This document shows positions 15,801-40,000 of a stretch of 40,000 nt of DNA, piece by piece (positions within the stretch are counted from its first letter, which is position 1; each line of letters starts with the position of its first letter). The notes beneath the pieces were generated by a model. The model was given only the letters and a program-made list of their open reading frames with translations. It had not been told where the DNA came from and did not search any database. The position numbers and the translations under genes are program-made. The DNA comes from Dolichospermum flos-aquae CCAP 1403/13F (GTDB lineage: Bacteria; Cyanobacteriota; Cyanobacteriia; Cyanobacteriales; Nostocaceae): positions 4,243,334 to 4,283,333 of the forward strand of contig NZ_CP051206.1 in NCBI RefSeq assembly GCF_012516395.1, in the 5' to 3' direction.

Positions 15801-18800
15801 TAATGTTCCTTCTGCTCAGGAATTGCGCCAGTATTTGCAAGGGCAATTACCTGATTATATGATACCGAGTTTCTTGATCAACTTGGAGGGTATTCCCTTA
15901 ACAGCGAACGGGAAAGTAAATCGTCAGGCTTTGCCTCTGCCAGCACAGGATTTGAGCCAAGTAGCCGATTTTATTGCCCCGCGTACTCCTACGGAACAAG
16001 CGATCGCAGATATATTTACTACTGTTTTACGGTTGGAGTCCATAGGTATTGACAACAACTTTTTTGAGCTAGGGGGACACTCCCTGTTAGCTACTCAGGT
16101 AATCTCTCGCTTGCGGGAAACTTTCCAAATTAACCTCCCCTTGGTTAGCTTATTTGCAGCACCTACGGTGGCTGGAATTGACTCAATTATTCATCAGCAG
16201 TTGCAACAGGGTTTAGGAAAACTTGCCCCACCTATTCAGGCTGTAGAGCGGACTCCTGATCTAGAATTACCCCTAAGCTGGTCTCAAGAACGACTGTGGT
16301 TTATTGACCAACTGGAAGAGGCTAATGCAACCTATAATATGCCAGCGGCAGTTCGTCTTCAGGGTAATCTCCACGTTCCAGCTTTAGAACGGGCTTTGGC
16401 GGAAATTGTTCAACGCCATGAAGTGCTAAGAACGGGCTTTCAAACTAGAGATGGTCAAGCTGTACAAGTTATCTCACCGGCAGCTAGGCTAACTTTACCG
16501 ACAATTGATTTACAGTCTTTGTCCGTTGATCAACAGCAAATTAGTGTTCAAAAACACATCCTTGAGGCAGCGCAAACTCCTTTTAATTTGTCTCAACCTC
16601 CCTTGATGCGGGCTACCTTATTACTGATTAGTCCTAAAGAATATGTGTTATTAATTACAATGCACCATATTGTTTCTGATGGTTGGTCAGTGGGTGTTGT
16701 CGTGGGAGAATTATCCACTCTCTATCAAGCTTTTAGCCAAAACCGCATTTCTCCATTGACAAACCTGAATATTCAATATGCAGATTTTGCGATTTGGCAA
16801 CGTCAATGGTTGACAGGTGAGGTATTACAAACCCAACTCAGCTATTGGCAAACTCAGTTAGGGGGTAATTTACCAATTCTCAATCTTCCCCTGGATTATG
16901 GCTTATCTGCGGGACAAGATCATCGGGGTGTGGGGGAACATCTATCCATAGAGCGATCGCTTACTCAATCTTTAAAAGCACTCAGTGATCAAGAAGGGGT
17001 AACTTTATTTATGACCCTGTTCGCAGCTTTTAATGTGCTTTTGTCTCGTCACACAGGGCAAGAAGATATCATTGTCGGTTCACCCATAGCCGGTCGTCAT
17101 CATTTTGGTTGTGAAGATTTGGTCGGCTTCTTTATCAACACCTTGCCTCTTCGCACTAATTTAGCCGACAATCCCAACTTCCGACAATTATTAAAGCGGG
17201 TTCGGGAAGTAACACTAGGGGCTTATACCCATCAAGATATTCCCTTGGAAAAGTTGGTGGAAGAATTACGTCCAGAACGAGTCTTAAATCGCCATCCTTT
17301 GTTTGATGTGCTTTTTAACTTTGTGAACACCCCAGAGGCAGTTCTGGACTTGGGAGATTTGACCTTTGAACGGTTAACCCAACCCGAACCTTATGCTAAA
17401 TTCTGGCTAACCTTTTATATTCGTCAAGTTGGTGAAGCCTTAAATGTGGAACTGGTCTATCGTCAGGGTTTATTTGCCCCGTCACGGATGACCGCTTTAC
17501 TGGAGCAGTTTGTCTTTTTATTAACACAAGTGGTTGATCATCCTGATCAGAAGATTCAATCCTATTCCCTCTTATCTCCTCAATCTGCGGCTTTATTGCC
17601 TGATCCTGCCATGCCCTTGGTAGAGCCAGACTATGAGCTTGTATCCACATCATTTATCAACTGGGCAAAACAAACCCCTGCACAAATAGCAATTTGTCAA
17701 CATGGGCGAAATTGGACCTATGGAGAATTGGCGACAGTCTCCCGAAAAATAGCCCAAATGCTGATTCATCATGGATTACAGCCAAAGGATGCAGTCGCAT
17801 TGTCAGGCGATCGCAGTTTCGGTGTAATTGCTAGTATTTTGGGTATCCTTTTGAGTGGAGGCGTGCTAGTAATTATTGATCCCCACCTACCACCACAGCG
17901 TCAAAACCTGATGCTTGAGCAAACCCAAGCTCGTTATGTAATTACCATTGGTAATCCCTCAACAGTGTGGGAAAAGGAACTGAAAATCATCGCCATAGAT
18001 CCTCATACTGGGGCAATTGGGGAAGAAATGGCTACTGATGATATCCCCTTACCTGCCCTTGCACCCAATGATCCAGCCTACATCTTTTTTACCTCTGGTA
18101 GCACGGGAACGCCTAAAGGAGTATTGGGAACGCACAAAGGTATTGCCCATTTTATCCATTGGCAACGTCACACCTTTGAGATTACACCGAGCGATCGCAT
18201 TGCCCAACTAATTGGACTGGCCTTTGATGCCATTCTCAGAGATATTTTTCTCCCCTTAACCAGTGGTGCAACCCTTTGTTTACCAGATCCAGACTACATT
18301 CCCGGCTCACCTCAGATTTTGTCTTGGCTAGAAACAGAAAAAATCTCCCTATTTCATACCGTTCCCGCAGTTGCCCAATCTTGGTTACAACAAATTCCCG
18401 AAACAATCACATTAAGTTCATTGCGGTGGGTATTCTTTTCTGGAGAACCATTAACTCATTCCCTCGTTCAAAAATGGCGGCAAAACTTTCCAGCAGCCGG
18501 AAATATTGTTAATCTTTATGGTGCTACCGAAACCACAATGGTGAAGTGCTTTTATCAAGTACCTCCAGAAATTTCCGTGGGAGTTCTCCCTGGAGGTTGG
18601 CCTTTACCTGACACTCAAATTCTGATTTTCAATACTCAAAACCAACTTTGTGGTATTGGTGAAATTGGGCAAATTGTCGTGCGAACACCATTTCGGACAT
18701 TGGGGTACATTAACCCAATTCCCTCGCCATTTGTACTCAATCCATTTCGTCAAGATATGCAGGATTTGCTGTACTATACAGGCGATAATGGACGCTATCG

Positions 18801-19530
18801 TTCTGATGGGGCAATTGAAATTTTAGGCCGTTTAGATCATCAAATTAAAATTCGAGGAGTTCGTGTTCAACCAGGAGAAATTGAAGCCATTTTAAACCAA
18901 CATCCAGCAGTCGGAGAAGGTGTAGTCATTGCTAAACAAAAAACCTCTGGAGAGGATGATATTGTTGCTTACATAGTTGTTAAATCAGGACAATCTGTAA
19001 CTACTCAAGAGATCCGAAAGTTTCTCAAAAACCAACTACCAGAATATATGATTCCGTTGTTTTTTGTAGAGTTAGACAGTCTACCTCTAACGGCAACAGG
19101 TAAAGTAAATCGTCAATTACTACCCGAACCTAATTATAGTCCAAATCAGGCTTCTGAGCGGCGAGAACCTCGAACACCCATGGAAATTAAAGTAGTGGCA
19201 ATCATTTGCCAAATTCTTGATTTGCAACAAATTAGTATTGATGATAATTTCTTTGCATTGGGAGGACATTCCTTATTAGCTGCTCAAGTTATTTCTCGAT
19301 TGCAAAAAGAGTTTCAGGTCAATATTCCTCTCAAATCCTTATTTGAGATGCCTACTGCGGCTGAACTTGCTACTTTAATTGAAAAGCTGCAATTAGAAAC
19401 AACTGGTGAATCTATAATTCCCAAAATCACCAAAATATCTCGAAAACGTCATCAAGCCAAAGTATCTTCTGAAGGTAAATTGGCACTATCTGAGGAATTA
19501 AAAGACGAAAATTTCAAGCCTAATCAATAG
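6844..19530 (+). CDS. Hybrid PKS-NRPS: KS-AT-ACP-LLM-KR(Tyr->His)-C-A-PCP-C-A-PCP
   Basis: 4228-aa ORF. ATG 6844 overlaps the previous stop and directly abuts GGAGG (6839-6843). The second in-frame ATG at 6853 has better RBS spacing and may be the true start. Domain motifs are listed in the domain features. Confidence 0.9.
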   Translation: MTKMTAVTDNVKNLSSLQRSVLLIEKLESQVNRLKYAKTEPIAIIGMSCRFPGSANDPQAFWEILKSGTDAVTEIPSQRWNIADYYDENPQTPGKIYTKSGGFLPEVDKFDPQFFGISSREAVSIDPQHRLLLEVTWEALENAGHIPQRNQGSSTGVFVGITLNDYGSIAKQSHSDVSVEAYGVTGSPSYAAAGRISYTFGFTGPCMAIDTACSSSLVAIHQGCQSLRQQECQMAVVGGVNLILLPDSMIATSKANMLSSDGRCKTFDASADGIGRGEGCGILVIKRLSDAEANGDKILAVIRGSAVNQDGPSSGLTVPNGNSQQQVMLQALKMAKIEAAEVSYVEAHGTGTPLGDPIELRSLAKIYAAHHSQDNPLFIGSAKTNISHVETAAGVAGVIKVILQLQHQQIAPHLHLKTPTTHFNWQDFSVIVPTKITPWSVQSGSRIGVVNSFGATGTNAHIILAEAPPQLKPAHSSLERPLHLLTLSAKTEPALKDLVKRYQSWLDINADLKIADICYSANTGRGHFKHRLALLVSETQELATKLENLTSPQEQMTGVLHGQLSSNGGNPKVAFLFTGQGSQYVDMGRELYETQPLFRKIIEQCDTIVRSHLEKSLLEILYPQNPHESETSFLDQTNYTQPALFALEYALAQLWISWGIKPNAVMGHSVGEYVAACIAGVFSLEDGLKLIATRARLMQSLPDNGEMLAVFADKDRVMQAIASHEDKVAIAAYNGLENIVISGEKQAIAAIKTKLENAGIDSRPLNTSHAFHSPLVDPILNQLAQAANQIKIHPPRIPIISNLTGQTLSAGQRLDGQYWQQHSREAVKFTDGLRTLVEQGYETFLEIGPKPILSKLGNRCQLGDNLLWLPSLVTGQPAHSILLNSLAELYVRGADVNWSGFDENYPFQRLILPNYPFQRQRYWFETPALENREQEVGVIKSVPAVLQADTALSSQRVQILKSLQFLIGQALQISPDEVDIQIPLVEMGADSIVFMETGQKLETTFGVRIPIRKLFEDLSTLNALGTYINEHLPAGFVFTPPAQNNSQEVVLAAEATTPNVETKKNESLSANSSPQTPALEQIGTNAIERIMSQQLQAMSDLMSQQLAVLRGETTLSQTQQHISHLVSPPENSPVNFAQTGTKNSKRQEFWERREFKPRLSELEKSAADFPINVPANKEMQFSLYYFGSYDAEFASDKYSLLFAGVKYADENGFTSVWLPERHFHAFGGFSPNPSVLCAALAKVTSQIHLRAGSVVLPIHHPVRVAEDWAIIDNISQGRVGISFASGWHPHDFIFAPQDYDDRREIMFEGIETVQKLWRGESIQLPSGSGKLAEIRTFPMPQQQELPAWVTIVNNPDTYIRAGAMGIGVLTNLMGQTVDDLARNIALYRESLALHGYDASVGQVTVLLHTFVGTDLQQVQEQARQPFQDYLTSSIGLFQALVKSQGLEVADFEKMTEDDKDYILSAAYQRYIQTSALIGTPDSCIEIVEKLLAIGVDEIACLIDFGVEEAAVLANLPHLKTLKERINQLKTADWLYTLDWQQQPCDVSALSPAEPGHWLIFADKQGVGNALANQLRSHDQTCALIYPQGSDTTLPKSDLELNPTDPTAFNQLLQNQIAASELPLQGIIHLWSLDSPLSDQLTVDLLHQSQQMVCASVLHLVQAVDQHPDLKNACPQLWLITQQAIMAENNAPTGIAQSSLWGLGRVVTIEHPEMWGGLIDIDAQRTAFEVSQQLWLEIRAQQGKGEQAEDQVLLHQEKRYVARLARHSVSNADIVPVNLGLEGTYLITGGLGALGIRLAKWLVDQGIGHLVLCGRSVPSAKIQTQIRQLQQQGIQVMVAQLDVSNSADLSALLRKVQERTKDNWPQLQGIFHLAGLLDDGVLFQQTWERFETVFNPKVLGTWNLHILTQDLPIKHFVLFSSIASLLGSPGQSNHAAANAFIDALAHLRRAKDLPAVSINWGSWTEIGKVTRLEGAQKQRWQEYFDKLWRSYGMEAIAPREGFHALGQLLNQPPVQVGVFPIDWPKFCQSLNVQHKPLLLNLTQPQTPSAHLRIPLSEAQKQLWLLSEIVREGSIVYNDNVNLELRGDLQVEILKQSIQTVIQRHESLRTVIDPQGEWQEILPTLVIEIPLIDLSSVQGEQDDKLRDWLVKRSQKPLNLVKDPLLQVEVLKLEQQRHVLVITIHHIISDGWSVENILKEIAQIYSDLSNGSAVTLDSPLQFREFLNWQNNRSQTEEMLNHESFWLEQFANSIPVLELPTDRTRPLSKTYHGHRQTRETDPSLREQLRRLSQGQGCTLFMTLLAAHFVFLHRLSRQEEIVLGIPTSGRFLSGGETMVGYATHLLPIRSCFQEDLTFLAYLAEIRRTLLTAYEHQDYPFSQLLKRLNLKSDHSRTPLVSVTFNLQPPVPTTQLRDLQTTLVERPVSFTHFDLHFIVIDMGDRLILEAKYNTDLFNDATIERWLDHFHTLLQEIIAQPNQSVATVPLLTHQQRQQLLVGWNPPASKLEQDCIHHRFQVQVDQTPDAIAVVCEEEKLTYYELNARSNQLACLLGGEIRYDLMNHEGTKVTKEEGKKEEGKIDGFPVRSGDLVVLYVGRSVVCLVGILGIWKAGGVYVLLDASTTPPHRLALLLADIQPAVLLTQAEYSANLPDSLSCPVVLLDRELSTSSENSPCLVKSDDLAYIIFTSGSTGQPKGVAIEHGNLAAYTTSIIECLDLQPGRSFATVSTFAADLGYTAIFPTLCTGGVLHIITQETSTDPRSLAAYFSQHQIDYLKIVPAHLNALLDGEQSLQVLPRHTLILGGDTLAWDLAQKMQNLAPQCRIFNHYGPSETTVGVLTFCVPQDQQQLEYLSKTVPLGRPLPHAQVYILDQYQQPVPIGVPGEIYIGGASVGSGYFNRPELTAAKFVSHPYSHTPDSERLYKTGDLARYLPDGNIEFLGRIDNQVKIRGFRIELGEVESILSQHPGVQQVVVLVEEERLIAYWVAVQIVGVNVPSAQELRQYLQGQLPDYMIPSFLINLEGIPLTANGKVNRQALPLPAQDLSQVADFIAPRTPTEQAIADIFTTVLRLESIGIDNNFFELGGHSLLATQVISRLRETFQINLPLVSLFAAPTVAGIDSIIHQQLQQGLGKLAPPIQAVERTPDLELPLSWSQERLWFIDQLEEANATYNMPAAVRLQGNLHVPALERALAEIVQRHEVLRTGFQTRDGQAVQVISPAARLTLPTIDLQSLSVDQQQISVQKHILEAAQTPFNLSQPPLMRATLLLISPKEYVLLITMHHIVSDGWSVGVVVGELSTLYQAFSQNRISPLTNLNIQYADFAIWQRQWLTGEVLQTQLSYWQTQLGGNLPILNLPLDYGLSAGQDHRGVGEHLSIERSLTQSLKALSDQEGVTLFMTLFAAFNVLLSRHTGQEDIIVGSPIAGRHHFGCEDLVGFFINTLPLRTNLADNPNFRQLLKRVREVTLGAYTHQDIPLEKLVEELRPERVLNRHPLFDVLFNFVNTPEAVLDLGDLTFERLTQPEPYAKFWLTFYIRQVGEALNVELVYRQGLFAPSRMTALLEQFVFLLTQVVDHPDQKIQSYSLLSPQSAALLPDPAMPLVEPDYELVSTSFINWAKQTPAQIAICQHGRNWTYGELATVSRKIAQMLIHHGLQPKDAVALSGDRSFGVIASILGILLSGGVLVIIDPHLPPQRQNLMLEQTQARYVITIGNPSTVWEKELKIIAIDPHTGAIGEEMATDDIPLPALAPNDPAYIFFTSGSTGTPKGVLGTHKGIAHFIHWQRHTFEITPSDRIAQLIGLAFDAILRDIFLPLTSGATLCLPDPDYIPGSPQILSWLETEKISLFHTVPAVAQSWLQQIPETITLSSLRWVFFSGEPLTHSLVQKWRQNFPAAGNIVNLYGATETTMVKCFYQVPPEISVGVLPGGWPLPDTQILIFNTQNQLCGIGEIGQIVVRTPFRTLGYINPIPSPFVLNPFRQDMQDLLYYTGDNGRYRSDGAIEILGRLDHQIKIRGVRVQPGEIEAILNQHPAVGEGVVIAKQKTSGEDDIVAYIVVKSGQSVTTQEIRKFLKNQLPEYMIPLFFVELDSLPLTATGKVNRQLLPEPNYSPNQASERREPRTPMEIKVVAIICQILDLQQISIDDNFFALGGHSLLAAQVISRLQKEFQVNIPLKSLFEMPTAAELATLIEKLQLETTGESIIPKITKISRKRHQAKVSSEGKLALSEELKDENFKPNQ
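6961..8245 (+). other. KS domain (module 2)
   Basis: EPIAIIGMSCRFPG, DTACSSS (Cys codon 7480-7482), EAHGTGTPLGDPIE, KTNISHVETAAG, GTNAHIILAE. Confidence 0.9.
8557..9460 (+). other. AT domain, malonyl-type (module 2)
   Basis: VAFLFTGQGSQ, GHSVGE (Ser codon 8848-8850), TSHAFHS. Confidence 0.8.
9700..9938 (+). other. ACP domain placed directly after AT (module 2)
   Basis: ILKSLQFLIGQALQISPDEVDIQIPLVEMGADSIVFMETGQKLETTFGVRIPIRKLFEDLSTLNALGTYI. Ser codon 9814-9816. This is the only carrier domain between the AT and the first C domain. Confidence 0.8.
10378..11430 (+). other. LLM-2: luciferase-like monooxygenase domain between ACP and KR
   Basis: MQFSLYYFGSYD...YADENGFTSVWLPERHFHAFGGFSPNPSV...RAGSVVLPIHHPVRVAEDWAIIDNISQGRVGISFASGWHPHDF...LHTFVG...IGVDEIACLIDFG. 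Confidence 0.85.
11434..12920 (+). other. KR domain (module 2) with catalytic Tyr replaced by His
   Basis: GHWLIFADKQG, WGLGRV, YLITGGLGALG, LDD motif (HLAGLLDDG), NPKVLGTWNL, SSIASLLGSPGQSNHAAAN. The codon at the canonical YAAAN Tyr position is CAT (12640-12642). Confidence 0.75.
12997..14290 (+). other. C domain 1 (acyl-acceptor, PKS/NRPS interface)
   Basis: IPLSEAQKQLWLL, RHESLRTVI, HHIISDGWS (13387-13413). It follows the KR directly with no intervening carrier domain. Confidence 0.85.
14365..15940 (+). other. A domain 1, hand-extracted code DLTKIGHVGK (Asp-like)
   Basis: LTYYELN, IIFTSGSTGQPKGV, FAADLGYT, NHYGPSETTV, GEIYIGG, YKTGDLARY, KIRGFRIELGE, NGKVNR. The code was aligned by eye to GrsA-PheA positions 235-331. 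From memory, the canonical Asp code is DLTKVGHIGK. Confidence 0.65.
14491..14580 (+). repeat. In-frame repeat-derived ~30-codon insertion between A-domain cores A1 and A2
   Basis: cacgaagg occurs three times (14515-14539) and gaaggaggaggggaa twice (14536-14565). Translated as EIRYDLMNHEGTKVTKEEGKKEEGKIDGFP. The equivalent segments of the other A domains in the window are about 28 aa shorter. Confidence 0.75.
15975..16200 (+). other. PCP domain 1
   Basis: FFELGGHSLLATQVISRL, Ser codon 16081-16083. Confidence 0.9.
16267..17590 (+). other. C domain 2
   Basis: LPLSWSQERLWFIDQLE, RHEVLRTGF, MHHIVSDGWS, IQYADFAIWQR. Confidence 0.85.
17640..19130 (+). other. A domain 2, hand-extracted code DARHFSLMVK (DxRH class)
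   Basis: WTYGEL, IFFTSGSTGTPKGVLGTH, LAFDAILRD, FHTVPA, NLYGATETT, YYTGDNGRY, KIRGVRVQPGE, TGKVNR. Arg at position 239 and His at 278 are the pair I recall from the microcystin iso-linked MeAsp/Glu modules (McyB2 DARHVGIFVK, McyE DPRHSGVVGK). Confidence 0.5.
19165..19390 (+). other. PCP domain 2
   Basis: FFALGGHSLLAAQVISRL, Ser codon 19270-19272. Confidence 0.9.
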
Positions 19531-19531
19531 G

Positions 19532-19548
19532 ATTGGTAATTGGTAATC
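19532..19548. repeat. TTGGTAA heptamer (STRR-like) in the NRPS-racemase spacer
   Basis: attggtaattggtaatc. It contains the TTG used as the ORF-track start of the racemase ORF. Confidence 0.5.
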
Positions 19549-19569
19549 AACTTAGTAAATAAGGATGAA

Positions 19570-20328
19570 ATGGATAAGATGGATAAAATTTTAGGTATTT
19601 TGGGAGGAATGGGACCTTTAGCATCAGCAGAATTTGTGAAAACTATTTATGAGTACAATATTGCCGGAGACAAAGAACAAACCGCACCCAGAATTATGCT
19701 CAATTCTAATCCTTCCATTCCTGATAGAACAAGTTTTCTGCTCAAAGGGAATTATGATTTATTGTTGAGGAATTTGATTGAATCAGCCCATCAATTGAGC
19801 GATTTACAAGTTTCTAAGATTGTTATTTGTTGTTTTACATCTCATTATTTATTGCCATACTTACCCAGCAACATCAGGGAAAAAATCATTTCTTTAGTTG
19901 ATGTTTGTTTACAAGAAGTGTGGAGTTGTAAAGGTCGTCATTTGCTTTTATGTACAAATGGAACTTATCAACTAAAAATATTCCAAAGTAGTGAATTATG
20001 GCAGATGACGGCGGATAATATTATTATTCCCGATGAACAAGACCAAAATGCCATCCATAATATGATTTATCAAATCAAGGTTAATAAACAAAGCTTTGAT
20101 TCAGCTACTATTTTCTTGAAAACTCTTATGAATAAATATCATGTAAATTCCCTTATATCCGGTTGCACAGAAATCCACTTACTCAACCGCTATATTCACT
20201 CTCAAAACCATCAAAATCAAGAATATTTTGATCATAGTATTTTCTTAGATCCTCTGATGATTATTGCCACCAGATTAGAGAAATTCCTGGGTGAAAATTC
20301 ATTCAATCTCACTACAATTTCTGCCTGA
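19570..20328 (+). CDS. Aspartate/glutamate racemase family protein (McyF-like stand-alone racemase)
   Basis: ILGILGGMGPLASAEF N-terminal motif and two Cys motifs (VICCFTSHY and ISGCTEIHL) typical of PLP-independent two-thiol racemases. The ORF-track start TTG 19540 lies in a heptamer repeat. ATG 19570 is preceded by AAGGA (19561-19565); ATG 19579 is an alternative. Confidence 0.8.
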   Translation: MDKMDKILGILGGMGPLASAEFVKTIYEYNIAGDKEQTAPRIMLNSNPSIPDRTSFLLKGNYDLLLRNLIESAHQLSDLQVSKIVICCFTSHYLLPYLPSNIREKIISLVDVCLQEVWSCKGRHLLLCTNGTYQLKIFQSSELWQMTADNIIIPDEQDQNAIHNMIYQIKVNKQSFDSATIFLKTLMNKYHVNSLISGCTEIHLLNRYIHSQNHQNQEYFDHSIFLDPLMIIATRLEKFLGENSFNLTTISA

Positions 20329-20391
20329 GTTAATAAATATTCTGACTGCTAACTAGTACAACCCTGAAAAACCTAAATTGTATTTTTAGAA

Positions 20392-23300
20392 ATGACTGAT
20401 AATACCTTACTCTCAACCGCATCAGAAACCTTTGTTTTTCCCTTGTCCTTTTCCCAAGAAAGACTATGGTTTCTTAACCAACTTGAAGGAGCTAATGCTA
20501 CCTACAATATGTCTGCGGCAATTCGTTTAAGTGGAAAAATTAATATTCAAGTTCTAGAAAAAGCTATAAACGAAATTCTTCAACGTCATGAGGTGTTAAG
20601 AACGAGTTTTCAGATTCTCGATAGTCAAACAGTACAGGTAATTTCTACAGATGTAGATTTCACCCTACATTGTATTAATTTAGAAGATTTGCCCGCAACT
20701 GAACGGGAGATAAACGTTCAAAAATGGATGAAAAAGGAAGCTATCACACCTTTTGATCTATCTCAATCTCCCTTAATCAGAGCTACACTTTTACAAACTG
20801 ATATTCAAGAATATGTACTGTTGGTGACAATGCACCATATTATCTCAGATGCTTGGTCTGTGGGTATTGTCATTCGAGAGTTGTCTATAATATACCGAGC
20901 TTTTATTGAAAGTCAGCCCCATGCGCTGCCAGAATTAGATATTCAATATGCTGACTTTTCCCAGTGGCAAAGGGAATGGCTGCAAGGAGACAGATTAGAT
21001 AAACAGCTTACCTATTGGAAGAATTACTTAGCTGGTGTGTCGCCATTTCTCAAATTACCTACAGATCATCCTCGTCCACCAATTCAGACATTCTCAGGAC
21101 AGAATCAGCGATTTGCAATTGGGGCTGATTTGAGCATTGCCCTGAAACAATTGGCACAGGAGAATGGTTGCACCTTATTTATGGTTTTGTTTGCGGCCTA
21201 TGCCACATTACTCCATCGTTACAGTAATCAGGAAGATGTGGTGGTGGGTACATCTGTGGCCAATCGCAGCCAACCTGAACTAGAAACATTAATTGGCTTT
21301 TTTGTCAATACTTTAGTTCTCCGGGCAAAGTTTGAGCAAAATCTCACTTTCCTGGAACTGTTACAACAGGTAAAACAAGGGGCGCTAGAAAGTTACACCC
21401 ATCAAGATTTACCCTTTGAACAAATTGTCGAAGCATTACAACCAGAACGAAATTTAAGCCATTCCCCGATTTTTCAGGTGTGGTTTGTGTTACAGAATAC
21501 TCCCACTGAAACCTTACAACTACCAGATGTCACATTAACACCCTTGTTGTCTGAAACTCAGGTAGCTAAATTTGATTTAGCCTTATCAATGTCAGAAACC
21601 AAGTCAGGTTTGACAGGAATGTGGCAATATAACACAGATTTATTCGATGCTGATACCATAGCGCGGATGGTCGGGAATTTTCAGGTGTTGTTGGAGGCGA
21701 TCGCTACCCAACCCCAGGAAAAGATTAACCTGTTACCACTGTTAACGACACAAGAACAACAACTGTTAAATAACTGGAATCATACAGCCGCTCCCTATCC
21801 ACAAGATGTTTGCATTCATCAAATATTTGAAAAACAGGTGATGCTGACACCGGACGCTGTGGCGGTAGTATACGGAGAACAGCAACTCACATATCAACAA
21901 TTAAACGATCGCGCAAACCAATTAGCCCATCATTTACAAAGTATAGGGGTTGGTGCAGAAGTATTAGTAGGACTTTGTGTACATCGTTCTCTGGAAATGA
22001 TTGTGGGTTTGTTAGCAATTCTCAAAGCTGGTGGGGCTTATGTTCCCTTAGATCCCAATTATCCAGAAGAACGTTTAGCATACATCCTTAAAGATGCTGC
22101 GGTTTCCGTGTTGTTAATCCCCGAATCACTGGAGGAAAATTTGCCTCCCTCCTATGCCTTGGTAGTCTATTTAGATAGTGATTGGCAGGAAATTGCTACC
22201 CAAAGCTGTGAAAATCCTGTCCCCACAGTCCAACCCCACAACTTGGCCTATGTGATTTATACATCCGGTTCTACTGGTCAACCCAAGGGCGTTTTAGTAA
22301 CTCATCAGGGTATTGGTAATCTGGCTCTAGCTCAACAAAACTTATTTAAAGTAGAAAGTGATAGTCGCGTCCTGCAATTTGCGGCTTTTGGTTTTGATGC
22401 TTCCGTTTCCGAAATCTTCATGGCCTTGGTATCTGGCGCTCAACTGGTATTAGCACCATCACAACAAATAATGCCCGGTGTAGATTTGCAACGGACGATT
22501 GCTCATCATGGTATTACTCACATTACCTTACCCCCTTCAGCCTTAGCAATTTTGCCCCCAGAGCAGATACCAACACTAAAACAGGTAATTGTCGCTGGAG
22601 AAGCCTGTCCTGAACCTCTGGCTCGAATTTGGAGTCAAGGGCGGCATTTTTTCAACGCCTATGGACCGAGTGAAGCTACAGTTTGCGCCACCGTGGCGGA
22701 AGTTTGTTTCCCAGCAGCGGACAACACTAATGCAGTAGTTCCCATTGGTAGAGCGATCGCTAATACACAAATTTATATTCTTGATAACGCCTTACAACTT
22801 GTACCAGTAGGAGTACCAGGGGAAATATATATTGGTGGTGTCGGTATAGCTAGGGGATATTCCCACCAACCGCAACTGACAGCCGCAAAATTTATCGAAA
22901 ATCCCTTTCAAGCGGGAAGACTATATAAGACAGGGGATTTAGCCCGATATTTGCCCGATGGTAACATCGAATTTTTAGGTCGTCTTGACCGTCAAGTGAA
23001 AATTCGCGGGTTTAGAATTGAACTCTCAGAAATAGAAGCCCATTTAAGTCAGCATCCTCAAATACAGGAAACCACCGTTATTACCCGTGAAGACCCTTCG
23101 GGAAATCAACGATTGATAGCATATTTAGTGTCTAAAGACAATACCTTAACTACATCAGAATTAAGGCAGTTTCTCAAAAACAGGCTACCAGATTACATGG
23201 TGCCAAATATCTTTGTCATGTTGGACGTAATGCCATTAACACCAAATGGCAAAATTGATCATCGCAGCCTACCCTCTCCTGAACAAGATTTAATAGAGGA

Positions 23301-28741: not shown

Positions 28742-30337
28742 ATGTCAGATGAAAAGTTTTACCTCAAACAAAATGTGGTTTTAGAACCGTTAGTTAATCA
28801 GTGGCACGCTTGGTCTTATTTGATAGCTCCAGCTACGGCAGCTATGTATATTCTCAATTCCCATTTAAAGATTATGCAGTCTTTTGTGTCTGCCCCAAAA
28901 GTGCATATTTCCGCCCTCAAATCACCAAAGATGATGGCGGGACCTTTTGTTAATCATGATGAAAGTGCTGCTAGTGATATTAAGGATTTGATTGAATACT
29001 TGAGGACAAAACAAGCACATATGTTAGAGCTTGCTGAAGCTATTAAAATCCTGAATGAATATCTAGAGACAGAAGCTAGTGGTTTTTCTTTAGAAGAAAT
29101 ATATGCAAAAATTCCTCAGTCTCTTCAGGGATTTGTTGAACTTAATTATGATTTAAATAATCATCCAGCGATGCGTTTAATGGAGGGGCTTTTGTACCAC
29201 AGTGTTTATTGTAATCAGGTTTCCCAAAGTATTGCAATGTATGTTGTTGAACAGGATCAACGACCTTTTATTTTTAGCACGCCTAGATTAAAGCAAGCTG
29301 ATAATTTACATCTGCATATCCCATTCAAACATCAGATTTTAGATCAACTATCGAAAATGAAATATGTTCCTGGTGATTTGCAAGAAATTAAAGAGAAATT
29401 AGATATTGATGATCAAGATGAAACACTATTTGTAAGTTTCTTTACACAAGAGCCTCCCCATCAGCAACCCCGTCAATTTGATCAAGATGGTGTCAGAGTC
29501 CGTTATTTTGGCCATGCTTGTCTGTTGATAGAATCAAAAGATGTGAATATCCTCTGCGATCCACTTATCAGTTATAATTACCCCAATGCCAGCGATCGCT
29601 ATACCTACGCTGATTTACCTCCCATTATTGACTACATTGTGATTACTCACCACCATCATGATCACTGTGTAATTGAAACATTATTACAGCTAAGACATCG
29701 GGTGAAAACTGTGATTGTTCCTAAAAATAATGGCGGAAGTCTGGCTGATCCTGCCATGAAACTTATTTTACAGAGTATTGGTTTTAAGGATGTGAGAGAA
29801 ATTGATGAAATGGAAGAGATAGATATTACAGGGGGTAGCATTACTGGGTTGCCATTTTTGGGTGAACATGGAGATTTAAATATTAGAAGTAAAATCGCTT
29901 ATTTAATCACTTTGTTAGGTCGCTCAGTCATGGTTTCAGCGGACTCTAGAATTCGTGATCCTCATGTTTGTAAAAATATATGCAATTCAGTTAATAAGAT
30001 TGATGCTTTATTTTTAGGACTACAATCTGATGGAGCACCTTTGAGTTGGGCTTATGGTTCATTATTATGTAAACCTTTAAGTCGCAAAATGGATAATGAT
30101 AGACAAGTGGGAGGAGCTAACTTTGAAATTGCCAGTAGTATGGTTGAACAGTTGAAACCTAACTCTATGTATGTCTATGCAATGGGCTATGAACCTTGGT
30201 TAAGTTATATGATGGTTCCTGATTTTGACGGACCTATGGCAGAGTCGAAGAAGTTAATTGACGAATGTAATAGCAAGGGAATTTTTTCAGAACAATTGTT
30301 TGGTTACAAGGAAATTTTGTGTCGGCTCAATAAGTAG
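28742..30337 (+). CDS. CmlA-like beta-hydroxylase (N-terminal accessory domain + metallo-beta-lactamase-fold, probable di-iron oxygenase)
   Basis: 531-aa ORF, 22 nt after the NRPS stop, with AAGGAGA RBS (28729-28735). C-terminal half has MBL motif ITHHHHDH (HxHxDH, aa 303-308) followed by LGEHGD (E375) and SADS (D401). It has a ~250-aa N-terminal domain without MBL motifs. Length and two-domain layout match my recollection of CmlA, the carrier-protein-dependent di-iron beta-hydroxylase of chloramphenicol biosynthesis. Confidence 0.6.
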   Translation: MSDEKFYLKQNVVLEPLVNQWHAWSYLIAPATAAMYILNSHLKIMQSFVSAPKVHISALKSPKMMAGPFVNHDESAASDIKDLIEYLRTKQAHMLELAEAIKILNEYLETEASGFSLEEIYAKIPQSLQGFVELNYDLNNHPAMRLMEGLLYHSVYCNQVSQSIAMYVVEQDQRPFIFSTPRLKQADNLHLHIPFKHQILDQLSKMKYVPGDLQEIKEKLDIDDQDETLFVSFFTQEPPHQQPRQFDQDGVRVRYFGHACLLIESKDVNILCDPLISYNYPNASDRYTYADLPPIIDYIVITHHHHDHCVIETLLQLRHRVKTVIVPKNNGGSLADPAMKLILQSIGFKDVREIDEMEEIDITGGSITGLPFLGEHGDLNIRSKIAYLITLLGRSVMVSADSRIRDPHVCKNICNSVNKIDALFLGLQSDGAPLSWAYGSLLCKPLSRKMDNDRQVGGANFEIASSMVEQLKPNSMYVYAMGYEPWLSYMMVPDFDGPMAESKKLIDECNSKGIFSEQLFGYKEILCRLNK

Positions 30338-36762: not shown

Positions 36763-36775
36763 CTGACTGATAAAC

Positions 36776-36825
36776 AGATCCCTGACTTTTTGGAAAAGTT
36801 GGGGATCTATAATTTATTTTTTATT
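36776..36825 (+). terminator. Rho-independent terminator after purQ
   Basis: AGATCCCTGACTTTT-tgg-AAAAGTTGGGGATCT: a 15-bp stem (two G-U pairs in RNA) with a 3-nt loop at 36776-36808, followed by ataatttattttttattt. Confidence 0.7.
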
Positions 36826-36833
36826 TATATATC

Positions 36834-36863
36834 TTGACTTGTCAAATCGCAAGGCATTATTAT
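36834..36863 (+). promoter_or_regulatory. Possible sigma70-type promoter for the 1014-aa ORF
   Basis: TTGACT (36834-36839), 18-nt spacer, TATTAT (36858-36863). The -35 region is part of the palindrome TTGACttGTCAA. Pattern match only. Confidence 0.25.
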
Positions 36864-36903
36864 TTATAGTAATTAATTTTAGAACCAACAAGGAAGGGTG
36901 CAA

Positions 36904-39900
36904 ATGAACAAAATAACCATAAATCCAGACTTAGCCCATGTTGATTATACTGATTTATTGGTGAAGATCTTAAAAATTCTCAAAGAAAAGCAAATATTCA
37001 CAATTTCTCCAGATAATCAAAGGGTACTGATTAATATTAATCAAGTAGTGAATGAAGTTATTGATTTACAACCATATAATCCTTTAGGAAATGAGAGATC
37101 AGTGCGTACTGCTACTCTAAATTTTAGTTCCGGTTCTCAAGATTCATTTAGTCAACAAATTAAAGAAATTACTGCTGATATTCAGCAACATTTAACAGCA
37201 GCTATTCAGAAAAATCCTGAAAATCACTCAACAAATAGAGTTGAATTTATTAAAAAATTAATGACTGATTTGCAGACATTCAAAGGAGAATATAAGAAAG
37301 ATGAGAAAACTAAAACACCAATTTTAGATTTTACCTATCCATTTCCTCCTGCGACAAATTTGGAAAAGCAAAGATTGACAGTTAACAGAAACGAAAATAG
37401 CCAACAGAAACAACTATTAAAAGCGCATAATGTCAAATTTTCTGTAGATAAACCTCGTGATTTTCAATCAACCCTATTAACAGGAATTAATAATTTTATT
37501 GATATAAAATTTGCTGGGATAAATTCTCAAGATCGAGAAGATTTAGAGGATATTATTGATAACTTAGAAAAAAATACCAACTCGGATATTTACAGCTTAG
37601 AAAATCTAGTTAACCAAGAAACATTAGGAAAATTAAAAAAATTAGCTAAAATCAAATATTTAGAATTTCTCTCAGAAAACATTGATAAAAATGCTAGTGA
37701 TGACAACTTAAAAGGGAAGATATATTTAGAAGATCTAATTAGAAGATTGAACCTATTAGAAGATCATATCAACGATAGCAATAAAGCAGATGGAGAATAT
37801 CAAGTTAGTTATGCGGGAATATCAGTTAATTATCAAACCATGTTTTCTCGCAGTGAAGCATATGATATCTTACCGATTATTCCCAACATTGAAGGTTATT
37901 TAGGAGAAACAGAAGATCCAAATCGAGAGAAAATAGAATTTACCTTGGGGTTGAAATTAAAATTTGATGGTAAAGTTCAAGCTTATGGAGGTAAAACAGT
38001 TTTTGATTATCATCTCAATCTTTTAAATCCAGATAGTCAAGAACATAAAACTGAAATTGCAGATGATTCAAGAAAATCTAATTTTGTCTATAAAATTCTA
38101 AAAATAGCCTTTTTATATTATTTCATATTTGCATCTCGTCAAAATTCCCAAGCAGAAAATTATCACCCCCAAAGCGAGTTAGAATATAATCCTCTTGAAA
38201 AATTTGAAAAAGATGTACTTCCAGTATTAAGAGGGAGTGATGATGAAGCTAAAAAGAAACTATTTAAAAGTTGGATAGCGGGTTTTACTAAATTGAACGT
38301 TAGGGAAAAAATCAAAACTCTCAAAAAAGTTTTAATAAGTTTGATCAAAAGAGAAACTCCATTTCCCAGTAGAGACTATCCTGTACATATTTCCGTGAAG
38401 AATAGTATTTTAGAAGATGACATTGACACTATTAACGAAAGAGAGACAATCTTTAAAGATGCGTTGCGAAGAAATTTTAAAGATTGTTTGAAATATATCA
38501 ACATAGGAAATGCAACCACGCAGAAAAACTTACTGATTACTCTTCCCGCAAAAATAAGTATTAGTGAAATTCATTTTTTAGAGACAGAAGATAAAGAAAC
38601 TTTCGAGATGGAATATGATATTCCTCAAGGTATTGAGGTTTTACCAGTCATATTTTTAGCAATGAAAGAAGGGAGTGAATTTTATAACAAAAACTTACAA
38701 CATCGGAAATTACTAATTTTCCCCCAACGTTCAGAAAATGACAAACTAGAAATCCATCAAGAAATTATTTACAAAATAACATATAGCTTACTAGCGTATA
38801 TTTGTCTTCACGTCATCCTTGAAAAACAAAGCAAAGTATTTATTCCTCTTTTAAGAATACATCTTAAAGAAAAAACCGACAACGCACCAATAGAAAAATT
38901 TATAGTTTCCTTAACTAAAGTATTATCTCATTTATTTAATGATGGATATCGCAGTAATGAACAGGGAATAGTTATTACTAATAAGGTTACATATAAAATC
39001 CCTAATGTTCTGAGTTCCTTGTATTCAGTTGTCCCCAAAAAATTTCAGTTATCAGAAAGTGATAAATTTGCATTTCAGGAACTTGATAAAATTGCAATTA
39101 TCGTAGTTTCCAGTCGAGAAACTGATAGTACATGGGTAACAAAAGCGAAGAAATCTAACCTCATGGGAGAAATTATTACCTTACAAATGAAACCCAAATG
39201 TGTGAGATTTCAGCTTTTGAAAACCTTCTCAGAAAACTTTGATGATCATGATAAGATGTTTGAATATCCTACCGTAGTAGTTGATAATGTAGACAAACTT
39301 TATCAAAAAGGGTACAGACACTTTATTTATATCGCAAAAGTTCCCTATAGCAGCACATTACATATTACCCAAACTGAAAAAGATGAAGAATTATTTTTTA
39401 TGTCGAAAAATGTTATTACCGCATTAACAAAAGAAAAACATGATATCAAAATTTATCCGATGTTTTTTGAAAAATACTACGCAGTAAAAGTTTCCGGGAT
39501 AAAATCAACATCATTATATATTCAAGACACCCTGGAACTTACCAACTTAGCAGAAGATAAGAATAAAAAATCTGTCATCTTTTTTAACTTATTCAATGGC
39601 ATCGCACTTTCTGAAGATAATCATTATCATGGAGTCATGTCTTATGCGACATTATTAAACATTTACGATGGTATTTTAGATGATAAAGATATCAGAAACG
39701 GATTAATTTATGATGATAGTCAATTAAAAAATGAAATTTTGCAATGTTTAACCTTGTTTCATTTTTCTCGTTATGAAAAGTCGAGAGATATTCAATTAAA
39801 ATTAGATCCCTATCAAAATTTAATCGGAGATGAATCAGTTAGTCAAGTTGCGTTATTTCCCCATAGTCGCAGCAAAGGAAATTTCAACTCCCTAGCATTT

Positions 39901-39942
39901 TTAACTCACATCAAACAAATACTCAACAAACAAGACAAATAA
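36904..39942 (+). CDS. Large hypothetical protein (about 1012 aa), AT-rich, no recognisable motif
   Basis: Uninterrupted ORF. The ORF track starts at GTG 36898, but ATG 36904 has GGAAGG about 6 nt upstream. Lys/Asn/Ile/Glu-rich. I found no P-loop (GxxxxGK[ST]), HD, DEAD, HNH, PD-(D/E)xK or other signature by eye. Confidence 0.7.
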   Translation: MNKITINPDLAHVDYTDLLVKILKILKEKQIFTISPDNQRVLININQVVNEVIDLQPYNPLGNERSVRTATLNFSSGSQDSFSQQIKEITADIQQHLTAAIQKNPENHSTNRVEFIKKLMTDLQTFKGEYKKDEKTKTPILDFTYPFPPATNLEKQRLTVNRNENSQQKQLLKAHNVKFSVDKPRDFQSTLLTGINNFIDIKFAGINSQDREDLEDIIDNLEKNTNSDIYSLENLVNQETLGKLKKLAKIKYLEFLSENIDKNASDDNLKGKIYLEDLIRRLNLLEDHINDSNKADGEYQVSYAGISVNYQTMFSRSEAYDILPIIPNIEGYLGETEDPNREKIEFTLGLKLKFDGKVQAYGGKTVFDYHLNLLNPDSQEHKTEIADDSRKSNFVYKILKIAFLYYFIFASRQNSQAENYHPQSELEYNPLEKFEKDVLPVLRGSDDEAKKKLFKSWIAGFTKLNVREKIKTLKKVLISLIKRETPFPSRDYPVHISVKNSILEDDIDTINERETIFKDALRRNFKDCLKYINIGNATTQKNLLITLPAKISISEIHFLETEDKETFEMEYDIPQGIEVLPVIFLAMKEGSEFYNKNLQHRKLLIFPQRSENDKLEIHQEIIYKITYSLLAYICLHVILEKQSKVFIPLLRIHLKEKTDNAPIEKFIVSLTKVLSHLFNDGYRSNEQGIVITNKVTYKIPNVLSSLYSVVPKKFQLSESDKFAFQELDKIAIIVVSSRETDSTWVTKAKKSNLMGEIITLQMKPKCVRFQLLKTFSENFDDHDKMFEYPTVVVDNVDKLYQKGYRHFIYIAKVPYSSTLHITQTEKDEELFFMSKNVITALTKEKHDIKIYPMFFEKYYAVKVSGIKSTSLYIQDTLELTNLAEDKNKKSVIFFNLFNGIALSEDNHYHGVMSYATLLNIYDGILDDKDIRNGLIYDDSQLKNEILQCLTLFHFSRYEKSRDIQLKLDPYQNLIGDESVSQVALFPHSRSKGNFNSLAFLTHIKQILNKQDK

Positions 39943-40000
39943 AAAATTGTCGGTTGGATTGAGTTTTCGCTTAAACCAACATATCTGAAAATAACCAACA

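Follow-up and report, generated by a model that had tools for sequence, protein, structure and literature searches.

The window analyzed here is a 40,000-nucleotide (nt) stretch of the Dolichospermum flos-aquae CCAP 1403/13F genome (contig NZ_CP051206.1, positions 4,243,334 to 4,283,333 of the forward strand), in which genes for Band7, Fur (- strand), PurS, and PurQ are followed by a long, AT-rich gene, designated X, near the 3′ end. The first-pass annotation regarded X as a horizontally acquired orphan at the edge of an island, possibly a component of a conflict system whose partners would lie beyond base 40000. Here, X is predicted to encode a very divergent Argonaute-like protein, and to be paired with a gene for a helicase-like ATPase, designated Y, that would begin just past the window end. 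The features of the X locus, in window coordinates, are as follows:

36904..39942, + strand: gene X, Argonaute-like, 1012 amino acids (aa); the ORF caller starts at GTG 36898 and gives 1014 aa
36904..38352, + strand: N-terminal half of X, residues ~3-485 (1014-aa numbering), mixed alpha/beta with long helices; model confidence (pLDDT) mostly 70-93 in the full-length model
38353..39939, + strand: C-terminal half of X, residues 486-1013, predicted MID-PIWI module (AlphaFold2 and Foldseek)
38635..39027, + strand: MID-like Rossmann-type subdomain, residues ~580-710, placed by secondary structure and conservation, with putative boundaries
39037..39939, + strand: PIWI-like RNase H-fold subdomain, residues ~714-1013, placed by model and Foldseek, with putative boundaries and residue roles
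36776..36808, + strand: terminator-like hairpin ending the purS-purQ unit, just 5′ of X, with a 15-pair stem, a 3-nt loop, and a T-rich tail
36834..36863, + strand: promoter-like site TTGACT-18-TATTAT for the X(-Y) unit, with 10/12 consensus matches; a consensus match only, function not implied
36890..36897, + strand: putative ribosome-binding site AAGGAAGG, ~7 nt upstream of ATG 36904
39943..40000, + strand: start of the X-Y intergenic spacer; Y is expected from about coordinate 40066, ~66 nt outside the window

The open reading frame (ORF) is uninterrupted at 36898..39942 on the + strand and comprises 1014 aa counted from GTG. The ORF as first described is therefore confirmed, but its start moves: the mechanically assigned GTG 36898 is likely wrong, and translation almost certainly begins at ATG 36904, because the consensus of the homologues (MNxIxxNxDL) and the spacing of AAGGAAGG both favor this codon. 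The strong terminator previously noted after purQ is the hairpin at 36776-36808. The ratio of nonsynonymous to synonymous substitutions (dN/dS) in X, calculated against 85%-identical orthologues, is 0.13-0.16, indicating purifying selection; judged from these sequence comparisons, X is a functional gene.

The relationship of X to Argonautes is invisible to sequence methods. Searches of X against Pfam, PADLOC, NCBIfam, and the PDB (by sequence and by profile) returned nothing meaningful, and the earlier remark that X has no recognizable motif holds at this level. Matches to SOUL, GIT1_C, and STING, all with E>0.01, were treated as chance, and no recurring family emerged when 30 divergent X members were searched against Pfam at E<=10. 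For comparison with a well-characterized Argonaute, the TtAgo sequence was taken from plasmid pTT27, in which the presumed key residues of this protein (R418/K422/Q433/K457 and D478/E512/D546/D660) are all present. The TtAgo profile consisted of 14 Thermus Ago sequences and is shallow, as the homologue search gave close Thermaceae relatives only, all of which carry PF02171. Alignment by hhalign of the X C-half profile to TtAgo alone was non-significant.

Predicted structures, however, indicate that X very probably has an Argonaute fold, with contiguous MID and PIWI domains. Residues 486-1013 were modeled with AlphaFold2 from an alignment of 98 sequences with members down to about 23% identity, which gave a pLDDT of 87.7 and a predicted template modeling score (pTM) of 0.86. 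When this model was compared with the PDB using Foldseek, 69 matches were obtained at E<=1e-3, and the top 50 were all Argonaute/PIWI structures at a probability of 1.00, in alignments of 440-590 columns that cover essentially the whole 529-residue query at 8-12% identity. The top matches include AaAgo (the best, at 4.4e-8), Siwi, MILI, MIWI, RsAgo, TtdAgo, and PfAgo, as well as Drosophila Piwi, hAGO1/2, AtAGO10, and the short prokaryotic Argonautes (pAgos) of SPARTA, SPARDA, and SPARSA. As a control, the BFVD viral structure library, which is without Argonautes, gave weak partial RNase H-fold matches over 130-260 columns. For full-length X, a model based on 45 homologues reached a pLDDT of 71.5 with a weak C-terminal third; nearly all of its top 50 PDB matches were again to Argonaute/PIWI structures, weakly (best E 1.6e-3). 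Thus, the AlphaFold and Foldseek comparison suggested by the first-pass annotation gave full-length matches only to Argonaute/PIWI structures, and the alternation of short strands and helices that it had described in the second half of X was correctly read, corresponding to the Rossmann-like and RNase H-like parts of the predicted MID-PIWI module. The best explanation for these models is that X represents a previously unrecognized, very divergent branch of the Argonaute/PIWI superfamily. The N-terminal half of X could take the part of an N/L1/PAZ or APAZ lobe.

In a deep alignment of 98 diverse sequences, the most conserved residues of X are H655, Q689-G690, N703, S707, Y709, D743, P816, P854, Y916, and H955. 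The MID-like part holds H655, Q689-G690, N703, and S707-L-Y709, and P713 and K715 follow where the PIWI-like part begins; these residues are candidates for a pocket binding the 5′ end of a guide. A recurring but non-significant hhalign patch aligns the invariant S688-Q689...N703...K714/715 of X to S432-Q433...N449...K457 of TtAgo, which form its 5′-phosphate pocket, and is only suggestive of such a pocket in X. In the PIWI-like part, conservation extends to S738-S739-R740, D743, Y811/A813/K814, and H955/R958. At the expected position of the third catalytic aspartate, at the end of strand beta-4, X reads Y811-I-A813-K814, while D743 and H955 are conserved. Because Ala813/Lys814 appear to occupy this position, X is probably not a canonical slicer, an assignment that is made with low confidence from secondary structure.

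The linkage of X to Y is near-universal: Y, a gene of ~1200 aa, lies 3′ of X and on the same strand in about 70 loci, at a gap ranging from -4 (overlapping ATGA) to about 500 bp. For the Dolichospermum genome, the position of Y was derived from a 99%-identical metagenomic contig (L087; L numbers denote the loci and contigs compared here), which is identical to the window over its last 101 nt. The next ORF in L087 begins 124 nt after the X stop codon, behind GGAGG, and is 79% identical to the N terminus of Y from Anabaena PCC 7108; by way of this contig, Y is placed 66 nt beyond the window. The supposition that a partner would lie beyond base 40000 was thus sound in substance.

The Y protein contains a Walker A motif (FLTGNPGIGKTTAI / GNPGIGKTT) near residue 419, a Walker B motif (MIDEITGD), a motif V-like FMTASxSRGLSFP, and a motif VI-like QVIYRGRG. 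It matches Pfam Helicase_C at ~750-860 (E 2.6e-8, above the Pfam cut-off), and its P-loop gives sub-threshold Pfam matches to nSTAND3, AAA_22, and ATPase_2. Comparison of Y with the PDB by sequence and profile gave only weak matches, to superfamily 1B (SF1B) P-loop and DEAD-box RecA2 structures (SMUBP-2, DNA2, SrmB). The N-terminal (~400 aa) and C-terminal (~340 aa) regions of Y are strongly conserved; no assignable fold or nuclease motif was found in them by Pfam or by PDB sequence and profile searches. A manual search of Y for a PD-(D/E)xK motif gave no convincing candidate, although a cryptic nuclease fold in the terminal regions is possible. Y has only two nearly invariant cysteines. These sequence features are best explained if Y is a divergent helicase-like ATPase that carries large, conserved extensions at both termini.

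It is highly likely that X and Y form a functional module, because a putative fusion protein exists, X-Y-X' operons occur, and the pair is kept at X identities of 24-27%. In the candidate fusion, P0163 (2028 aa, from an ENA metagenome), residues 11-989 of X are joined to a portion of Y that comprises its N-terminal region and P-loop (AAA_22 at 1423-1484); the protein represents either a Rosetta-stone link or read-through where a contig ends. The Microcoleus-type operon X-Y-X' (L055:9968-19670; likewise L056, L057, L059, L062, and L080) has 4-bp stop/start overlaps, and X' is a paralogous Argonaute-like gene of ~1010 aa. In contigs resembling Firmicutes, X at 24-27% identity is followed by a Y that is 29% identical over 1126 aa (E 2e-89). 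Three retained loci have no Y within 10 kb.

X is far from being an orphan. A word-indexed search gave 361 matches, at identities from 99% down to 52%, in Anabaena, Dolichospermum, Cuspidothrix, Nodularia, Cylindrospermopsis, Sphaerospermopsis, Aphanizomenon, Tolypothrix, Scytonema, Stigonema, and Calothrix; a word-indexed search with a profile of distant X members gave 3. An exhaustive HMMER search extended the family to 244 clusters at 50% identity, in which full-length members reach as low as about 24% identity, and a scan of one genome per species identified X in at least 195 species. Oscillatoriales, including Moorena, Microcoleus, Limnoraphis, Phormidium, and Argonema, carry X at 44-49% identity, and the hosts found are overwhelmingly filamentous cyanobacteria. 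Outside this phylum, X occurs in Thermosporothrix and another Chloroflexi genome, as well as in contigs whose WxL, PTS, and Mga genes are characteristic of Firmicutes. The X gene of Thermosporothrix hazakensis (Chloroflexota; L088:8001-11210) has a GC content near that of its flanks (0.51 vs 0.52).

In 46 Nostocales species, X is located directly 3′ of purS-purQ, at a gap of <=500 bp in 36 of the 46, and the identity of X correlates with that of PurQ (Spearman rho 0.71, p 3e-8). The block NfeD-Band7-Fur-PurS-PurQ is common to Anabaena PCC 7108 and Cylindrospermopsis, and Band7-Fur-PurS-PurQ likewise precedes X in the window. This conserved synteny, together with the correlation, does not bear out acquisition at an island edge and points to X being native to Nostocales, with probable descent at the purQ site that has been mostly vertical. 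Two deep X-Y lineages nevertheless occupy this one site in close relatives: in Anabaena catenula and Sphaerospermopsis aphanizomenoides (divergent cassette loci L053 and L061, 10001-16700, compared with L001, L010, and L022), PurQ is 91-95% identical to that of the Anabaena/Dolichospermum group, whereas X-Y is only 54-58% identical to the cassette of that group and 69-78% identical to the Nostoc/Tolypothrix type. The pattern reflects either in situ cassette replacement or an ancient polymorphism. In Nostoc sp. CCY 9925 and NIES-4103 (L063, L064), an X-Y pair with ~47% identity in X and ~51% in Y is found away from purQ; the grouping of these cassettes by identity with the Oscillatoriales type hints at horizontal transfer within cyanobacteria.

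The description of X as AT-rich and free of HIP1 was accurate. The guanine-plus-cytosine (GC) content of the X ORF is 0.298 compared with 0.422 in the remaining window, and is 0.41/0.26/0.23 at the three codon positions vs about 0.55/0.40/0.37 for purQ and the Band7 gene; all 30 HIP1 (GCGATCGC) sites of the window lie at or before 36432, with 0 inside X. By itself, this absence is not significant (2.5 sites expected, Poisson P(0)=0.084), and it was rejected as a single-window signal. Across 60 orthologous loci, however, the depletion is real, with HIP1 densities of 0.27/kb in X, 0.38/kb in Y, and 0.72/kb in the flanks. Similarly, X and the downstream Y fall below the GC content of their flanks in 60/60 loci, by ~7 points (0.343 vs 0.413; Wilcoxon p 1.6e-11), and comparison of the region downstream of purQ in the 46 Nostocales species revealed the same AT-rich, HIP1-poor composition, as would be seen for a native gene. 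The shift is greatest at codon positions 1 and 2 (0.44/0.29/0.30 for X vs 0.53/0.39/0.36 for flanking ORFs), and therefore reflects protein composition rather than recent import; in fact, the X protein is rich in K/N/I/L/F/Y and poor in A/G/R/P. The AT-richness of X is thus a family trait that owes more to protein composition than to foreign origin, and recent horizontal transfer was rejected as its source, given the same composition in 60 loci and the codon positions affected. Two other stretches of the window, 19001-21000 and 29001-30000, are also AT-shifted (GC 0.35-0.36 vs ~0.43).

The X-Y cassette is interrupted or extended in several genomes. Insertions between purQ and X consist of an MS-channel gene or a Uma2 gene; the former is found in Anabaena PCC 7108 (L001:7923-9566, 17101-17469), where Y is additionally followed by a gene for a small 2TM-domain protein. 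In Calothrix NIES-4071 (L003:13007-22021), a 9-kb block between X and Y contains two-component regulators and toxin modules, namely, an SsdA-like deaminase toxin with Imm5 and a Gp49/HTH toxin-antitoxin pair. In a Firmicutes-like metagenomic contig (L089:1-14866), a complete type II Wadjet operon (JetA2-D2) is located directly upstream of a distant X-Y pair; JetB2, JetC2, and JetD2 match at E<=1e-108, and X-Y lies 4-5 GC points below its neighbors.

With a little better than an even chance of being correct, X-Y is proposed to be a guide-directed system against foreign nucleic acid, analogous to the DdmDE and pPIWI-RE systems with which it is compared below. By analogy with these two systems, a short guide of nucleic acid would be bound in the MID pocket of X, and guide-loaded X would recognize complementary invading DNA or RNA from a plasmid, phage, or other mobile element. 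X, probably without slicing, would then recruit or activate Y, and Y might, with ATP as its fuel, unwind the target, translocate along it, or contribute to its destruction. Guide binding, the catalytic inactivity of X, the action of Y, and the defense role are all parts that we infer. The original guess that X belongs to a conflict system is thereby supported in substance, by the predicted Argonaute fold, the apparent in situ replacement, the spread across phyla, and one Wadjet neighbor; mobile and toxin-antitoxin insertions, found both within the pair and around it, are a further defense-like signal.

Several observations weigh against this proposal or against the fold assignment beneath it. 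The Foldseek TM-scores are 0.3-0.46, the Pfam Piwi model (PF02171) and the pPIWI-RE models are silent on 30+ X members, and hhalign of the X C-half profile to the TtAgo-family profile was non-significant (E 0.47). Catalytic residues were mapped by eye on secondary structure, and a nuclease domain was found in neither X nor Y, hence no effector chemistry was identified. X of four members had no match in PADLOC-DB v2.0.0, and Y had only weak matches there, to mad8 (E 9e-6 and 2e-3) and type IV DinG/Csf4 (E 0.014-0.03). The adjacency to Wadjet is seen in a single locus, and Thermosporothrix carries X without a Y-like gene in the surrounding 8 kb. X is also kept in the streamlined, small genomes of Cylindrospermopsis and Raphidiopsis, and order-wide vertical retention at one housekeeping locus is unusual for a defense system.

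These last observations are central to the main rival explanation, which is rather unlikely but is the strongest of the alternatives: that X-Y is an Argonaute-fold/helicase module with a housekeeping role in genome maintenance. In polyploid filamentous cyanobacteria, candidate roles would include chromosome decatenation or processing at replication termination, repair, and R-loop or RNA handling; for some pAgos, links to the decatenation of chromosomes and to topoisomerase-poison tolerance have been reported. Such a role would fit a gene that is fixed after purQ in 46 Nostocales species, tracks PurQ in identity (rho 0.71), persists in small Cylindrospermopsis/Raphidiopsis genomes under strong purifying selection, and is hosted overwhelmingly by filamentous cyanobacteria, as well as a pair that yielded neither a convincing PADLOC match nor a nuclease or toxin effector. 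It would not readily account for the replacement of the cassette at the same site by a divergent lineage in close relatives, nor for a patchy occurrence across phyla (Chloroflexota and Firmicutes-like members, with one locus abutting Wadjet). The variable operon composition (X-Y, X-Y-X', X alone, or a fusion), the divergent and non-syntenic pair in Nostoc NIES-4103 and CCY 9925, and the three loci lacking a nearby Y are likewise at odds with housekeeping. The reading of X as a recently acquired foreign orphan marking an island edge, in contrast, has become very improbable: the drop in GC from 0.42 to 0.30, the absence of HIP1 from the ORF, and the lack of any match in curated libraries had made it attractive, but it is refuted by conserved synteny and family-wide composition, with X found in at least 195 species, at the same locus in 46, and with the same composition in 60 loci. 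The AT shift mainly at codon positions 1 and 2, a dN/dS of ~0.15, and a P of 0.084 for the HIP1 absence also oppose it.

An improbable, though not negligible, alternative retains the conflict role and dispenses with the guide. In such a system, X would be a guide-free Argonaute-like scaffold or sensor, comparable to the PIWI-like module of Med13, and Y would be the real sensor or effector, for example, a STAND-like or translocase ATPase triggering abortive infection. The weak scores of the Y P-loop for nSTAND3, ATPase_2, and AAA_22 besides helicase models are compatible with this alternative, as are the apparently incomplete canonical DEDX tetrad of X and the lack of statistical support for its match to the TtAgo MID pocket; however, Y matches Helicase_C above the Pfam cut-off, and the most conserved residues of X are concentrated in its MID-like region and on the PIWI helix with H955/R958, as in guide-binding Argonautes. 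The 2TM protein encoded after Y in Anabaena PCC 7108 could also suit this alternative, but this gene was seen only in the PCC 7108 loci and is absent from the other gene tables examined.

More boldly, X-Y might constitute a new Argonaute-based class, in which an Argonaute lineage invisible to sequence methods is coupled to a new helicase-like motor, domesticated as near-core, vertically inherited genome surveillance in filamentous cyanobacteria and also circulating horizontally in Firmicutes and Chloroflexota, a reading that is put forward tentatively and with somewhat less than even confidence. Many multicellular cyanobacteria, including bloom-formers, would then carry a guide-directed surveillance system that has been missed by catalogues of pAgos and of defense systems. 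Argonaute surveys use sequence profiles, which the X family escapes, indicating that the superfamily has whole hidden branches recoverable by structure prediction on deep alignments. Hosts of X-Y include the main toxic bloom genera Dolichospermum, Aphanizomenon, Cylindrospermopsis, and Nodularia, as well as genetically stubborn filamentous strains, and a resident X-Y could bar plasmids, conjugation, and cyanophages, hence genetic engineering and phage-based control. An Argonaute-type cassette that a whole order retains at a single housekeeping locus, but that is exchanged in situ between divergent lineages, would represent an unusual mode of immune-module evolution, in which defense and housekeeping functions of pAgos can be tested against each other. 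Should X prove guide-programmable, X with its motor partner would be a possible scaffold for tools.

In open-access papers and bioRxiv, nothing was found on the X family, its locus tags, or a cyanobacterial pair of Argonaute-like protein and helicase. Among known systems, X-Y resembles DdmDE of Vibrio cholerae in its general architecture. DdmE is a catalytically dead "long-C" pAgo, recognized mainly by structure, that uses 5′-phosphorylated DNA guides to recruit the helicase-nuclease DdmD. Both systems are two-gene modules combining a sequence-elusive Argonaute fold with a helicase-type ATPase of ~1200 aa, DdmE lacks the canonical DEDX tetrad and X may lack it as well, and they likely share a logic in which the Argonaute recognizes the target and the motor is recruited. 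However, neither X nor Y is similar in sequence to any PDB chain, those of DdmD and DdmE included if deposited, and no DdmE structure is among the top 50 Foldseek matches to X. DdmE has ~700 aa, whereas X has ~1010 aa with an N-terminal region of ~480 aa. The motors also differ: DdmD has an N-terminal SF2 (superfamily 2) helicase with Walker A K55 and a C-terminal PD-(D/E)xK nuclease, whereas in Y the Walker A, near residue 419, follows a 400-aa N-terminal domain, and a nuclease was not detected. DdmDE is located on a pathogenicity island, in contrast to X-Y, which is fixed beside purQ across an order.

The pPIWI-RE systems (Burroughs, Iyer and Aravind 2013; PMC3702460) consist of divergent PIWI proteins of ~1000 aa, encoded with a DinG helicase and a restriction endonuclease (REase); they comprise active and inactive versions, include cyanobacteria among their phyla, and are predicted to restrict invading DNA (PMC3702460). 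X shares with them a length of ~1000 aa, MID and PIWI parts preceded by a large N-terminal region other than PAZ, and an operon-linked helicase-type partner, which is SF2-type in pPIWI-RE. R740 and R958/E960, conserved in X, would be candidate counterparts of the Arg and Glu that pPIWI-RE proteins absolutely conserve in an extension of the PIWI beta-sheet. In contrast to pPIWI-RE, X has no match to DUF3893/RNaseH_pPIWI_RE, DUF3962, or MID_pPIWI_RE in 30+ members. In place of the order REase-DinG-PIWI, X precedes Y (at times as X-Y-X') and a separate REase gene is missing, and Y lacks the DinG Fe-S cysteine cluster, because only two of its cysteines are nearly invariant. The pPIWI-RE systems are sporadic and horizontally transferred, whereas X-Y appears largely vertical in Nostocales. 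By sequence, X-Y is therefore a member of neither DdmDE nor pPIWI-RE.

Compared with classical pAgos (long-A, such as TtAgo and SeAgo; long-B; and the short pAgos of SPARTA, SPARDA, and SPARSA), X differs in having no Pfam Piwi, PAZ, or MID match and only 8-12% identity. The cyanobacterial pAgos described are long-A enzymes (SeAgo) working with the Cas4-family ACE1, and in sequence they are unrelated to X. X shares with classical pAgos the predicted MID-PIWI fold, with AaAgo, RsAgo, and the SPARTA and SPARDA pAgos as its best structural matches, and the accessory effector gene that is typical of inactive pAgos; its partner, however, is a helicase-like ATPase rather than a TIR, SIR2, DREN, Mrr, or Cas4 protein.

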